Part shown: one piece after another, positions 51,909 through 56,182 of the stretch | Layout of the letters: the number at the start of each line of letters is the position of its first letter | How positions within the stretch are numbered: the first letter of the stretch is position 1 | IMG/VR virus record: IMGVR_UViG_3300021964_000022 | Coordinates: 46,013-110,012 of that record | Source of the DNA: a virus | Length of the DNA: 64,000 nt | Strand: one strand, 5' to 3' | Made by a program: the position numbers and the translations under genes | Notes under the pieces: model-generated | Seen by the model: the letters and a program-made list of their open reading frames with translations, nothing else | Databases searched by the model: none | What the model was told of the DNA's origin: nothing

Positions 51909-52240
51909 TAAACTTCCAAATAACTTACTGTAGCAGATAAGTTTGCTGGTGCTTGACTAACTAACACTACAGTATCTCCTGCATCAATTACTATTTTTTC
52001 AGTATCAAATGTAAATGTATCTGCACCTTGTACAGTTATATTGTTACAGATTTGATTCTGTGCACCTTTTGCTTGACCGCTTTTGATAATATGCAGATCA
52101 AATGATGTATCATTATTACCACTAACGTCATATGTTGCAGTATTGCACACAAGTAAAGTAGTAATAGCGAAAGTTTTACTAGCTGGTACAGTTAATAATG
52201 TTGTATCTGTTAATCCTATTGTTGCGTTTGCTATTGCCAT
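51908..52240 (-). CDS. Small beta-sandwich virion protein
   Basis: LTVP...AITTLLVCN; paralogue of 32182-32505. Confidence 0.55.
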   Translation of the reverse strand: MAIANATIGLTDTTLLTVPASKTFAITTLLVCNTATYDVSGNNDTSFDLHIIKSGQAKGAQNQICNNITVQGADTFTFDTEKIVIDAGDTVVLVSQAPANLSATVSYLEV

Positions 52241-52254
52241 CTTTTTTCTTTCCT

Positions 52255-53199
52255 TTAAAACAACATACTGTATAGTAGTGATCTATTTCTACCTACTACT
52301 TCGTCAGTTTTATTGTTTGTATTTACATAATATAATCCTGTATCACCAAAACCTGGAGTATCACCATATAGTATTACTCCATCACTTGCCGCAGGAACAC
52401 TTGCTTGATTAGGTAATTTTAATACACTTTCTAAAGTTATTGGAGCTGAACCAAAGTTTCCTAATACAAATTCGTTACCACTAGTTGCATTACGTATTCT
52501 ATTACCTTCAAATTCAAACCCTTCAATCTCTGTAATTTGTGGTCCAAATGTTGCTACTACACTATTATCGATCTTAATCTCAAAGTTACTAACTCCGCCA
52601 TCGATACTACTGTCTGATAATTCAACTTTTGAATCAGCCTGTGTAATACTTTTAATTGTAATAGTTTGAATACCTGCTACAATCGCATCATCAACATATT
52701 TTTTATTTGTTAAAATGTCATCAGTTGTAACTTGATTTTCGTAATCAGCTGTTCCGTCTACTCTTACTACTCCGTTACCAGAATTAATTAAGTTTAGATC
52801 GCCTCCACCTGTTGAAATAGAATTTACTCTTAATCCAATCAGTGCATTGTTTGCATCTCTAAAAGTAAATGCACCTGTCTTATTTGTATTAGTTATAGGA
52901 TCATTGTATGATAAAGTTTCATCAAACAAGATATTGACATCTGTTTCTGTACCTCTATCAATACGTAATCCAGCTGTATTAAGTGTAACTCCAGCACCTG
53001 TTTCACCATTGTTTACTTCAATGATGTTGTCTCTAACAATTAAGTTTTCAGACTGTACTGTTGTTGTATCACCTTCAACAACTAAATCTCCTGTAACTTT
53101 AACATATCCAGTTTCTGTACCTGTGTTAAGAGTTATAACTCCGCCACTTTGTACGCTTACTGTATAGTCACCGTTGGGTATATTTACAAATTTTGACAT
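52255..53199 (-). CDS. Tail structural protein
   Basis: GDLVVEGDTTTV.S....V.DNII, AGL.IDRG, NKKYVD fibre motifs. Confidence 0.6.
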   Translation of the reverse strand: MSKFVNIPNGDYTVSVQSGGVITLNTGTETGYVKVTGDLVVEGDTTTVQSENLIVRDNIIEVNNGETGAGVTLNTAGLRIDRGTETDVNILFDETLSYNDPITNTNKTGAFTFRDANNALIGLRVNSISTGGGDLNLINSGNGVVRVDGTADYENQVTTDDILTNKKYVDDAIVAGIQTITIKSITQADSKVELSDSSIDGGVSNFEIKIDNSVVATFGPQITEIEGFEFEGNRIRNATSGNEFVLGNFGSAPITLESVLKLPNQASVPAASDGVILYGDTPGFGDTGLYYVNTNNKTDEVVGRNRSLLYSMLF

Positions 53200-53214
53200 T
53201 CAAGATCCTCTATT

Positions 53215-53236
53215 ATAAGGGGCCGTAGCCCCTTAT
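53215..53236 (-). terminator. Stem-loop with cUACGg tetraloop (terminator or processing/stability element)
   Basis: ATAAGGGGC-TACG-GCCCCTTAT; no strong U-tract. Confidence 0.55.
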
Positions 53237-53243
53237 TCTAAAC

Positions 53244-53600
53244 TTATATTGCTGTTAGTACCAATAAAGATTCACTTGAATCGTCTTGTGCTTCCCATGT
53301 ATAAGCATTGCCATTCCAGTCAATTGCTTTTCTATTAAACAATTTACTTAAAATAGTTGCTGTACCACCTGGTGCAATACCAACAAGCGATGCTTCGCCT
53401 GCCGCATTAGGTGCAATTTCGTTAACAAGTCTACAAACATATGTAGTTGACCCGTCAGTTGTAACAGTAAATTTATTTGATCCTTTTTGATTTACAATGT
53501 ATCCTTCAACACTAGCTGAACCATTGTGATATCTTACCGGAATCGTTGCCGCCGCGGCGCCTGTTGCACCGAAGTTTCTTTTATTAATTGGACGTCCCAT
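53244..53600 (-). CDS. Conserved-looking late (probably virion) protein
   Basis: MGRPINKRNFG N-terminus, GYIVNQKGSNKF; strong RBS AAAGGAG. Confidence 0.6.
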   Translation of the reverse strand: MGRPINKRNFGATGAAAATIPVRYHNGSASVEGYIVNQKGSNKFTVTTDGSTTYVCRLVNEIAPNAAGEASLVGIAPGGTATILSKLFNRKAIDWNGNAYTWEAQDDSSESLLVLTAI

Positions 53601-53616
53601 TTTTTTCTCCTTTGTT

Positions 53617-53680
53617 ACGTTCTAGGTAATACGCGGTGGATTTCCGCATAAAGTATGTACCTACATACTACTAGACACAT
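53617..53680 (-). ncRNA. Candidate three-way-junction cis-regulatory RNA in 5' UTR
   Basis: P1 AUGU-G-UCUAG/CUAGA-ACGU, P2 AGUAUGU/ACAUACU, P3 UAUGCGG/CCGCGUA, between TAAATA (53682-53687) and the SD. Confidence 0.55.
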
Positions 53681-53719
53681 GTATTTATCATTTAACAGCA
53701 TTAAGGAAAAATAGTCAAG

Positions 53720-53744
53720 AAAAAAGACTCCGAAGAGTCTTTTT
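53720..53744 (-). terminator. Intrinsic terminator (cUUCGg loop)
   Basis: AAAAAGACTC-TTCG-GAGTCTTTTTT. Confidence 0.85.
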
Positions 53745-53749
53745 AAATT

Positions 53750-53965
53750 ATAAGCAAAATAGGTAGGACTTGGTTACACCTACAAGCACGTACCCGAATA
53801 CCATTCTAATACGTACAACCTAACCCCGCTAGTGACTGCGATGTGATACTGCGTATTTCTACTACAGCACCTGGGTACCACCCCTGGCTAGTCAAGTTCG
53901 ACCCTTCTGGTAAAGGCCTCTTCCTTGCACTATAAACAAAAATTAATTACTTTTTTGTTGCTTAT
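53750..53965 (-). ncRNA. Candidate stand-alone non-coding RNA (~215 nt)
   Basis: Flanked by a sigma70 promoter and a terminator, no credible ORF, GC-rich core, 5' AUAAGCAA pairs with 3' UUGCUUAU, several internal hairpins. Confidence 0.6.
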
Positions 53966-53971
53966 GTACTT

Positions 53972-54000
53972 AATATAACAGACTTTATATATAAAGTCAA
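53972..54000 (-). promoter_or_regulatory. Sigma70-type (early) promoter with overlapping 18-bp palindrome
   Basis: TTGACT-17 nt-TATATT with TGn extension and upstream A-tracts; perfect palindrome GACTTTATATATAAAGTC at 53981-53998. Confidence 0.8.
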
Positions 54001-54060
54001 CCTCTTTTTTACCAAAATATTAAATTTTTTGTAATCTAGGTAGATACTAATATAGTTTGA

Positions 54061-54210
54061 CTATTTCTTGTTTACAAGTGTATTGTAATGATGTAAGCGT
54101 TGTTGCAGTAGTTCACGTGCCATAGGGTCACGTTCACGCTTTAACTGATCCAATATCTGCTTGCGTATGTCACTAGGACGTTGATGTGTGTTTTTCTTTT
54201 TGTTTTTCAT
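54061..54210 (-). CDS. Small basic helical protein, 49 aa (not in ORF track)
   Basis: MKNKKKNTHQRPSDIRKQILDQLKRERDPMARELLQQRLHHYNTLVNKK; fills the intergenic gap, no clear SD. Confidence 0.45.
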   Translation of the reverse strand: MKNKKKNTHQRPSDIRKQILDQLKRERDPMARELLQQRLHHYNTLVNKK

Positions 54211-54217
54211 TTATGTG

Positions 54218-54243
54218 TAGGGGGCCTATTATGACCCCCTAGT
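54218..54243 (-). terminator. GC-rich stem-loop right after the riboswitch-controlled peptide
   Basis: TAGGGGG-TCATAATAGG-CCCCCTA; no U-tract on the minus strand. Confidence 0.45.
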
Positions 54244-54246
54244 TTG

Positions 54247-54441
54247 CTACCAATTGTTTGTAGAACGTGCTGTGCGATGTGCTAGTACCATACCTTGGTT
54301 AGTACCCTGCTTGACAGCGTATCCACTTGTACCATTTCCGTTCACATTAACTTCACTACGAGATTTCATAAGGATTTTTTCCTTGCGTTCTCTTATTTTT
54401 TGCTCGCGGTATGATTTAAGTAGGTGATCGTATCTGTTCAT
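54247..54441 (-). CDS. Glutamine-riboswitch-associated basic peptide, possible IF7/GifA-like GS inactivating factor
   Basis: 64 aa, SD AAGGAGAG; IRERKEKILMKSRSEV resembles the IF7 core as recalled (IKNRQQSMLSRAAAEI). Confidence 0.55.
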   Translation of the reverse strand: MNRYDHLLKSYREQKIRERKEKILMKSRSEVNVNGNGTSGYAVKQGTNQGMVLAHRTARSTNNW

Positions 54442-54464
54442 TACACTCTCCTTGTTACAGTTAA

Positions 54465-54515
54465 GTGCGTTCCTTCAGCATATTTGCTTACTTCCGGGCT
54501 ATGTCGCCTGAACGT
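54465..54515 (-). promoter_or_regulatory. Glutamine riboswitch (glnA RNA motif, glutamine-I)
   Basis: ACGUUCA-GGC-GACAUA-GCC-CGGAAGUA-AGCA-AAUA-UGCU-GAAGGAACGC: P1 CGUUC/GAACG, P2, E-loop, P3 and trailing C all as in the glnA consensus. Confidence 0.9.
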
Positions 54516-54522
54516 TGTATTA

Positions 54523-54894
54523 TTATTTAGTATCTAATACTTGAATAAATTCAGTTTCTCTGTCCAAATATTTAAAGTCAATCTTTACAGGATCAAACTT
54601 ATCTAATGCATCAAATACTATTCGTGTGTCTAAATCACCGCAAGTGTAGACATCTAATTGGATTAGTTTTGGAGATTGTTCGTCCCATATGTGTATTGCT
54701 ACGTGTGATGTTTCAATAATAGTAACACAAGTAAATCCTTTGTTACCTTCCATATCACAATACTTAACATAAGGACCCATCATAATCTTCATACCAATGT
54801 CTCTAATTAAATTAGAAGTCCAATCAGTAATAGTTTGTTCGTATATTGGAGGATTACTTACTTCTGCTCGTACTATTAAATGTTTATGTTTCAT
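54523..54894 (-). CDS. speD: Pyruvoyl-dependent S-adenosylmethionine decarboxylase-family proenzyme
   Basis: HKHLI, GFT.V.IIETSH.AIH.W, LDVYTCG. Confidence 0.85.
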   Translation of the reverse strand: MKHKHLIVRAEVSNPPIYEQTITDWTSNLIRDIGMKIMMGPYVKYCDMEGNKGFTCVTIIETSHVAIHIWDEQSPKLIQLDVYTCGDLDTRIVFDALDKFDPVKIDFKYLDRETEFIQVLDTK

Positions 54895-54958
54895 AAATTA
54901 TTATTTGTATATAATTTATACCTTATTTGCAACAAAAAGTCAACCAGAAAATTTAGCC

Positions 54959-54987
54959 AAAAAAATAGGCGCCGTAGCGCCTATTTT
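54959..54987 (-). terminator. Intrinsic terminator after major capsid gene
   Basis: AAAATAGGCGC-TACG-GCGCCTATTTTTTT. Confidence 0.88.
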
Positions 54988-55009
54988 AATATATTTTTCT
55001 AGTCTAAGA

Positions 55010-56182
55010 TTAGCTAAAGCTAACGTTTGCTGAAGTAATAGCAACTTTAGATAGATAGTCTGCCGCATTACCCAAAGATGATGCAGTGTTTGTTAACTCA
55101 ACATATCCGTATCTAGTCATGAAACTCACAACTGGCTCGAATGATGCCGGGTCAAGTACAACACCACTACTCATTAGTGGAATGTATGGGCAGTAAAACG
55201 CTGGTGCATCTGATTCAGATGAACCTTTGTAACCAACTAATACATCAGCTGTATCAGCCGCATATGAATCAACATAAACACGCATTGCGTTGTTTAGTGT
55301 ACCTACAAACTTAGTGTTTGTTGGTGCTTCAAATGAGCCTTCAGTTGTTCTTGCAAAAGCAGAAGTTGTTGCTGATTGTAGGATTGTCAACGCAAACGGT
55401 GAAACTACTGCGTAGTTACCCGCGCCACGACGTGTACGCTGTGCAATCAAGTTTGCAACTCTGTTGATTTGAACTGCTAAAGCCGCATGTTCGTCACCAA
55501 CGAAAGTAGCAGTACCTGATACTGCGTTTTGATCGTATGTTAGCGCCGCTGATCCTGCTAATGAACGAAGTGATCCTAGGATCTCTTGGTCAATTTCAGC
55601 AGTTATTTCTTGTGCTAGTGCCGCCATAATCTCAGCTTCGATGTCAATGCCCTGTTGAGCTTGTGCATCTTGAGCCGCTTCAAAAGTCCAGCGAGCTGAT
55701 AGCTTTCTAGATTTTGCTTCGACTGTTTGCTTTAAGATTTGGATGCTTAGTCTGTTTCCAGCTGATCCTTCAAGTGCCGCAGTTGCATTTGCTTTACCAG
55801 CATCTGAACCTGCTTCATCGCCGGAATAACCCATTGCGATTTTGAAAGGACTTAAAGCCTCTTCACCTGCGGATGCGTCATCAGCTGTATCGCTGTAACG
55901 TACACGTAGAGTGTGAATTTGGCCCACTGGACCCGTCATTGGTTGTACTCCAACAAGTTCATTTGCGATGACTGTTGGCATTACACGTCTGATAACTGGT
56001 AGGATAACACGATTAAGAGTTGCGACATTACCTGCAGAAGTAGCACCTGCTGTTGCACTCTCAGCCAAATACTTCTTAGTATTCTCAAGTGTAACGTCCA
56101 TTACTGATTTCTTGTGTCCGCTAAGACCTTCAAGTAGGGCACTCTTTGTATCCTGCCAGCGACCGTTTAATAGTTCTGACAT
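55010..56182 (-). CDS. gp23: Major capsid protein (T4 gp23 family)
   Basis: LPVIRR..P..IA..LVGVQPMTGPVGQI..LR, VEAKSRKL.A.WT.E.AQD, EI..EID.EI, FYCPYIPL, SFEP...FMTRYG. Confidence 0.95.
   Translation of the reverse strand: MSELLNGRWQDTKSALLEGLSGHKKSVMDVTLENTKKYLAESATAGATSAGNVATLNRVILPVIRRVMPTVIANELVGVQPMTGPVGQIHTLRVRYSDTADDASAGEEALSPFKIAMGYSGDEAGSDAGKANATAALEGSAGNRLSIQILKQTVEAKSRKLSARWTFEAAQDAQAQQGIDIEAEIMAALAQEITAEIDQEILGSLRSLAGSAALTYDQNAVSGTATFVGDEHAALAVQINRVANLIAQRTRRGAGNYAVVSPFALTILQSATTSAFARTTEGSFEAPTNTKFVGTLNNAMRVYVDSYAADTADVLVGYKGSSESDAPAFYCPYIPLMSSGVVLDPASFEPVVSFMTRYGYVELTNTASSLGNAADYLSKVAITSANVSFS

Follow-up and report, generated by a model that had tools for sequence, protein, structure and literature searches.

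What does the interval at positions 53720-54010 of this viral DNA produce: a small protein, a regulatory leader for the gene that follows, or an RNA molecule that works on its own? The interval is read from the minus strand of the window, by which we mean the whole stretch of 64,000 nucleotides that was analysed, and the window is in turn part of a 110-kb viral contig that is estimated to be 30% complete. The initial annotation had proposed a stand-alone non-coding RNA with an early promoter and a terminator of its own, placed among late genes, and had left it without a family. The base composition that it remarked on is borne out, as the GC content is 0.45-0.47 over positions 53750-53950 vs 0.24-0.33 in the flanks. 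Overall, we consider it reasonably likely that the interval is a self-contained promoter-RNA-terminator cassette, which yields a divergent manA RNA, releases it early as a free molecule and allows its copies to join through their loops into pentamer-based oligomers.

At the curated thresholds of Rfam, only two matches were found in the window, both of which flank the interval. At the gathering thresholds there is none within the interval itself, and a match to the manA family surfaces only when hits are reported by E-value.

54516-54464, minus strand: glutamine riboswitch (Rfam curated threshold)
53957-53753, minus strand: match to Rfam manA (RF01745), covering model positions 1-192 of 192, at 44.4 bits and E = 3.8e-8 (whole window)
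53668-53598, minus strand: freshwater-2 leader (Rfam curated threshold), after a late-promoter-like box

The window copy falls marginally below the manA gathering score of 55.2 bits, and its score is the same when the whole contig is searched. No other Rfam family, RNase P, SRP and 6S included, matches at E < 0.1 in 53720-54010, and an ARAGORN search of the window for tRNA and tmRNA genes was negative. Thus, the initial annotation was right to set these five classes aside and wrong to hold that the RNA could not be assigned, since the Rfam search that it had proposed as a check returns manA over its full length.

The relatives of this RNA bridge the gap to the threshold. Using blastn we found one phage record, that of Pelagibacter phage Mosig, in which the matching segment lies between genes and carries no annotation. 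It is collinear with the window RNA, has 73% identity to it over 224 nt and scores 64 bits against manA, above the cut-off. Relatives with 73-84% identity to the window score 57.9-64 bits. With a short pattern based on the core that these RNAs share, more than 119 viral contigs were collected; they contain 107 full copies, 86 of them distinct, whose identity to the window grades from 99% to 42%. When 15 homologous loci were scanned, 14 gave a full-length manA match at 41.7-65 bits, 4 of these above the cut-off. These observations indicate that the window RNA is a sub-threshold, divergent member of manA within a lineage that is continuous across the Rfam threshold. Because of this membership we class it within a known kind of RNA and not as a new RNA class; its lineage is marked by an additional helix that closes the RNA, and the window copy forms a stand-alone unit.

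The manA motif has been a riboswitch candidate since 2010, owing to its location in 5' UTRs, and its original description drew a possible pseudoknot (PMC2864571). The window RNA shares with the family (Rfam RF01745; PMC2864571) all helices of the 192-position model, over its whole length and in an unchanged order, the conserved AGUG, an L5 of the GGUGGU type, a GNRA loop at L6 and an occurrence in marine tailed phages. In addition, some homologues of the window lineage adjoin a gene of the mannose-6-phosphate-isomerase/cytidylyltransferase type, from which the motif takes its name. The differences are more specific. The outer helix is AUAG/CUAU in the window and GGGAG/CUCCC in the consensus, while the bases of L8 and L9 are UGGU/ACCA, as opposed to the CUGUA/UACAG offered by the Rfam consensus loops. 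The ends of the RNA are joined by the closing helix P0 in the window lineage, whereas classical copies seem to lack P0, given the shorter distance from their -10 box to AGUG. Finally, the window RNA is set apart from the next gene by a terminator and by that gene's own late promoter, such that it departs from the 5'-UTR position by which the motif was recognised, a difference that is contextual and not structural.

To examine the fold, we aligned 51 non-redundant homologues (mutual identity below 92%), all taken from viral contigs, with MAFFT and without regard to structure, and onto this alignment we projected the structure of the window RNA, namely the nine manA helices, the closing helix and two loop-loop helices. 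The main elements are as follows.

53965-53750, minus strand: folded RNA body of 216 nt, defined by fold and covariation and closed by P0
53965-53960 (AUAAGC) with 53755-53750 (GCUUAU), minus strand: closing helix P0, whose pairs change on both sides (AU/UA, GC/AU, CG/UA/GC)
53959-53935, minus strand: 5' hairpin P1, AACAAAAA/UUUUUGUU, with double changes in 7 of 8 pairs and a hairpin fold in every variant
53891-53820, minus strand: three-way junction domain, in which P4 encloses P5 (with L5), P6 (GAAA tetraloop) and P7 (with L7)
53891-53886 (CUAGCC) with 53825-53820 (GGUUAG), minus strand: P4, with double changes in 6 of 6 pairs

All parts of the nine-helix architecture (5' hairpin, outer helix, P3, the P4-P7 junction with its GNRA-capped P6, P8 and P9) are present in the window. 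Double compensatory changes occur in 58 of the 78 proposed pairs, a count that none of 500 shuffles reached, although these shuffles, like the permutations used below, leave phylogenetic relatedness in place and the figure is thus uncorrected for phylogeny. Standard pairs fill 88.7% of the alignment cells, compared to 73.1% after shuffling and 38-49% when the structure is slid by 1-3 columns, and the covariation score is 0.438 vs 0.167 for shuffled and about 0.1 for slid structures. For all five measures the observed value was reached in 0 of 500 shuffles. RNAalifold, given only this alignment, predicted 42 pairs, 33 of which carry compensatory changes, and hairpin segments cut at conserved anchors each refold as a hairpin in every sequence variant. 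The 249-nt stretch of the window has a minimum free energy (MFE) of -76 kcal/mol (z = -3.7), and none of 200 shuffled versions is as stable.

Several helices had been proposed from the window sequence alone. The complementarity noted between the two ends corresponds to P0, which covaries and takes the forms AAGC/GCUU, AUGC/GCAU and AUAG/CUAU in homologues. Covariation also backs the proposed CCUU/AAGG (P3), the long hairpin capped by GAAA (P6), GUAC/GUAC (P8) and GUAGG/CCUAC (P9). One further proposal, a helix UGACU.GC/GCAGUCA, is rejected because P4 covaries strongly in its place, with the remaining bases taken up by the loop of P7.

Could the region instead code for a small protein? The candidate is a frame of 33 codons that starts with GTG at 53881-53780 (minus strand) and is open in the window and 17 close relatives. 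These 18 are, however, the only ones among 86 distinct homologues in which it is intact; in the other 68 it lacks the start codon, has a length not divisible by three or is interrupted by a stop. The substitutions instead track base pairing, and the frame has no spaced ribosome-binding site ahead of it in the sequence, in agreement with the earlier statement that no open reading frame here has one. Conservation of a reading frame by homologues had been named as the observation that would count against an RNA, and what is found is covarying base pairs. We therefore regard a coding function as extremely improbable.

The next question is whether this RNA is transcribed as a unit of its own. The signals before and behind it are listed here, along with those of the next unit.

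54000-53972, minus strand: sigma-70-type promoter, with -35 TTGACT at 54000-53995, a 17-nt spacer and -10 TATATT at 53977-53972
53744-53720, minus strand: intrinsic terminator AAAAAGACUC-UUCG-GAGUCUUUUUU, with a 5-bp G+C core and an A/U extension, a UUCG loop and a U6 tail
53689-53682, minus strand: late-promoter-like box GATAAATA for the next unit, outside the RNA, marking the boundary and directly ahead of the freshwater-2 leader
53600-53244, minus strand: open reading frame of 118 aa, after the freshwater-2 leader

The promoter was correctly picked out in the initial annotation. Its hexamers match the consensus at 10 of 12 positions, it has a TGn extension at the -10 box and an A-rich upstream region, and it ranks first among promoter-like sites in the 4 kb scanned (52000-56000). 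The predicted start, near 53965, coincides with the first base of P0. Moreover, of the 80 distinct upstream regions compared among homologues, 70 contain a promoter of at least 10/12 at a constant position, mostly as TTGACA/T, N16-17 and TATAAT/TATATT with TGn, while the spacers between the hexamers are unconserved. An equivalent promoter precedes 73 of 80 classical manA loci, which were retrieved with a second sequence pattern. The distance from the -10 box to the conserved AGUG is 39-42 nt in the window lineage vs 23-31 nt in classical manA.

The terminator, also proposed earlier, was accepted on its sequence, fold and conservation and is absent from the output of a consensus terminator scan; our guess is that the scan missed it on account of the A/U extension of the stem, which leaves fewer than 5 T in the tail window. 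A terminator, defined as a hairpin followed by a U-run, starts within 20 nt of the end of the RNA in 53 of the 105 loci that have enough sequence. These terminators have 26 distinct stems (GACUC/GAGUC, GGCGC/GCGUC and GGACC/GGUCC, for example, as well as longer ones) and are linked to the RNA by unconserved A/U. Downstream of the terminator, the box GATAAATA is one that we take to be a late-promoter box of the T4 type, and among 40 distinct downstream regions, GATAAATAC recurs behind the terminator in 18. Taken together, the host-type promoter, the terminator and the GATAAATA box of the next gene bear out the view of a stand-alone non-coding RNA unit with an early-type promoter amid late structural genes.

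A different use of the same elements has to be weighed at this point. The RNA could be a cis-acting manA riboswitch or leader, in which a ligand or protein, once sensed, adjusts how much transcription continues through the terminator (53744-53720) towards the freshwater-2 leader and the gene for the 118-aa protein. The family was put forward as a candidate for this role from its 5'-UTR location (PMC2864571), about half of the homologues directly precede a gene without a terminator, and an aptamer followed by a nearby terminator is the classic layout of an expression platform. A switch of this kind needs two mutually exclusive pairings, and these are not seen. The terminator is part of the MFE structure in 35 of 35 distinct terminator-bearing transcripts, where it coexists with the complete fold, and P0 is also present in 28 of the 35. 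Since terminator and full fold coexist and the linkers are unconserved, no alternative pairing is apparent such as a termination riboswitch would require; 26 different terminator stems beside a constant RNA likewise leave no conserved anti-terminator. In addition, the gene that follows is served by a separate late promoter and a separate leader RNA, and no ligand for manA has been reported in the literature found, from 2010 on.

The genes behind the RNA also argue against a shared regulatory target. Those downstream of the homologues fall into at least 10 unrelated families with no function in common. The gp32 single-strand-binding protein follows in 34 loci, none of which has a terminator, and the 118-aa family in 24 (the window and 23 others, with relatives of 92-221 aa). 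Further downstream genes encode a cold-shock protein, a cytidylyltransferase/mannose-6-phosphate-isomerase fusion, rubrerythrin, peroxiredoxin, a radical SAM protein and a TonB-dependent receptor. The 118-aa protein itself has no significant Pfam or PHROG match, its sole Pfam match being Alliinase_C at 17.9 bits, below the cut-off of that family. We favour an autonomous early transcript over a riboswitch because the promoter is conserved, the terminators vary, a separate late promoter lies downstream and the downstream genes are unrelated; for the window, regulation in cis appears distinctly unlikely.

The other part of the family has a leader-like arrangement. A terminator is absent after the RNA in 52 of the 105 loci, and the next gene (gp32 in 34 loci, or rubrerythrin or peroxiredoxin) begins 22-107 nt downstream. 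In the gp32 loci (L006, L007, L023, L035 and about 30 more) the 70-107 nt between RNA and gene hold a conserved A/U-rich leader, similar to AAUAAUAAUGUCGAUUAAUACAGACACAUACAAAUACAAU, and no terminator; in 34 marine loci this conserved tract ahead of gp32 measures 70-80 nt. The combination of a folded element and an unstructured A/U tract recalls the translational operator of T4 gene 32, and a role in cis could apply to this terminator-less part of the family.

The genes near the RNA further inform how such a cassette is distributed among phages. The gene for the major capsid protein lies upstream of the RNA.

55010-56182, minus strand: major capsid protein, with about 70% identity to those of Sinorhizobium phage Phosso, Vibrio phage 2.275.O and Pseudomonas phage PA5oct

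The genomes of these three phages are 287-469 kb in length, and no manA match is found in the three cultured giant-phage records, so these relatives yielded no culturable model. A match is present in Mosig, a member of the Kyanoviridae, and in a second large contig. Given its occurrence in the giant-phage window, in Mosig and in the second large contig, the cassette is therefore common to unrelated phage lineages, and the manA family is extended to a giant phage lineage.

Contigs assembled from the RNA-seq data of four studies span the RNA; we take this as weak evidence, since such contigs give no ends, strand or level and DNA carry-over is possible. One such contig, of 210 nt, is identical to 53766-53975. 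Where RNA-library contigs of relatives diverge from the window, they do so at 54040 and 53712-53713, exactly where the promoter-RNA-terminator block has its edges. The segment 54079-54283 is without contig cover in four RNA-library runs, a gap to which we attach no meaning.

If the RNA is released as a free molecule, what might it do? The only property of the manA family that has been shown experimentally is self-assembly in vitro. In an unreviewed preprint of July 2026, Ren et al. (bioRxiv 10.64898/2026.07.01.735769) used cryo-EM to solve several manA RNAs, which form pentamer-based decamers, octamers and, in one case, an icosahedral cage of 60 subunits. These assemblies are held together by intermolecular kissing loops, L5-L7' and L8-L9', while one variant uses L3-L8' and a contact of the GNRA loop L6 instead (10.64898/2026.07.01.735769). 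The oligomers were obtained in vitro only, at 10 mM Mg and about 3 mg/ml RNA, and the preprint, which holds no in-vivo data, still terms manA a putative cis-regulatory element (10.64898/2026.07.01.735769).

To relate the window lineage to these structures, we derived helix and loop numbers from the Rfam structure, not from the figures of the preprint, and tested 21 loop pairs for complementarity that co-evolves. Two pairs stand out.

53880-53877 with 53833-53830, minus strand: L5 UGGU with L7 ACUA, a candidate kissing loop supported by co-evolution, with double changes in 3 of 4 pairs
53803-53800 with 53774-53771, minus strand: L8 UGGU with L9 ACCA, a second candidate kissing loop supported by co-evolution

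For L5-L7, complementarity of each loop to its own partner is 3.75 vs 3.23 +/- 0.16 for permuted partners, and for L8-L9 it is 4.12 vs 3.45 +/- 0.15; in both cases none of 2000 permutations, which are uncorrected for phylogeny, reaches the observed value. These are the only two of the 21 pairs whose co-evolution lies beyond all 2000 permutations. That of L3-L8 is marginal (19 of 2000 permutations reach it), and L3-L5 shows none in the same 2000-permutation test; pairing of L3 (UACCA) with either L5 or L8 would yield about -5.3 kcal/mol. In the alignment, the L5-L7 columns switch among U-A, G-U, A-U and G-C, and between G-C and A-U, and a divergent subgroup has CAGA/UCUG at L8-L9. The L6 loop of the window is GAAA and hence of the GNRA type.

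The loops that make contacts in the preprint are thus the complementary, co-evolving loops of the window lineage, with L3-L8 marginal, and the GNRA L6 is shared as well. The solved constructs differ in being other members of the family, and the window RNA has the additional P0.

We propose the following sequence of events for the window. Signals of the type recognised by host RNA polymerase place the start of the unit near 53965, and its 216-nt body folds into the manA architecture, with P0 sealing its ends and the non-competing UUCG terminator behind it. The RNA would then be set free early in infection, as a compact molecule that does not serve as a leader, a step to which promoter, terminator and fold lend good support. 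Copies of the RNA may pair through L5-L7' and L8-L9' into pentamer-based closed oligomers, by analogy with the in-vitro work on other manA RNAs, and the resulting assembly might act in trans, be it as a scaffold, by sequestering a factor or in some other way.

The loop data also fit a second arrangement. The RNA could remain a free monomer, acting as a protein decoy or sponge or as a base-pairing regulator, with its loop-loop pairs being tertiary contacts within one molecule. Everything that speaks for autonomy (the promoter, the terminator and the non-competing fold) applies to such a monomer equally, the original description of the motif had drawn a possible pseudoknot (PMC2864571), and covariation does not separate pairing within a molecule from pairing between molecules, both of which would leave the pattern seen in the loops. 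What tells against it is that L5-L7' and L8-L9' are intermolecular in several manA members (10.64898/2026.07.01.735769) and that the variable gene neighbourhood suggests no target or partner protein. As for the more specific roles offered in the initial annotation, nothing in our analysis points to a decoy for RNA polymerase or another protein, an anti-defence RNA or a tRNA mimic. We consider a purely monomeric RNA fairly unlikely and prefer oligomer formation through the loops.

Comparable behaviour occurs among other RNAs. ROOL, GOLLD and OLE also stand free; they are non-coding RNAs with a high degree of structure, are often encoded by phages and assemble into symmetric multimers made only of RNA. 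They are several hundred nt long and unrelated to the window RNA in sequence and fold, and no Rfam match to any of the three is found in the window.

Extended to the family as a whole, the genomic context evidence added here indicates that manA RNAs are probably autonomous, self-associating molecules and not riboswitches. The locus and its roughly 100 relatives supply the genomic side that is absent from the in-vitro work on cages, namely a strong promoter devoted to the RNA and placed at its first base, a non-competing terminator in half of the loci, unrelated downstream genes and covariation of the loops that build the cages. They also provide a concrete, testable case for manA as a free, self-associating molecule during infection. 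It is tentatively possible to go one step further and view manA as a horizontally mobile early cassette instead of a riboswitch, whose free RNA self-assembles in the cell into cages or rings that act in trans. If true, this cassette would be common to T4-like cyanophages, pelagiphages and a giant phage, would be driven by host-type promoters, and its cages might, for example, enclose or scaffold a host or phage factor.

A number of minor observations concern the sequences around the RNA. A possible second sigma-70 promoter, beginning with a TTGAC that abuts the terminator, is clear in only 8 of 40 distinct downstream regions and has a poor -10 box in the window, and we make no claim for it. 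With a late-type box directly upstream, the freshwater-2 element may mark the 5' end of a late message. In L005, L030, L055 and L116 the 5' half of a window-type terminator (AGACUC) is kept, whereas unrelated sequence stands in place of the 3' half, which suggests that recombination had its breakpoints within the terminator. The sharing of the cassette between unrelated lineages is consistent with module exchange at that point, given two loci in which only the 5' half of the hairpin persists. A conserved hairpin of about 40 nt (AGACCUAAGAUGCAACUC...GAGUYGGGCAGAUGGUCU) occurs 5-15 nt past many classical manA copies (L137, L139, L147, L152, L173, L180, L181, L187, L190, L211 and others) and may represent a further RNA module instead of a terminator.

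Finally, the window RNA has a recurring set of neighbours. A glutamine riboswitch with small open reading frames, the manA-type RNA, and freshwater-2 with a small gene follow one another over 54516-53598 (minus strand) in the window, with this order repeated in at least 7 other viral contigs (L004, L094, L076, L046, L042, L034 and L078). This three-element stretch looks like a conserved RNA-rich island.
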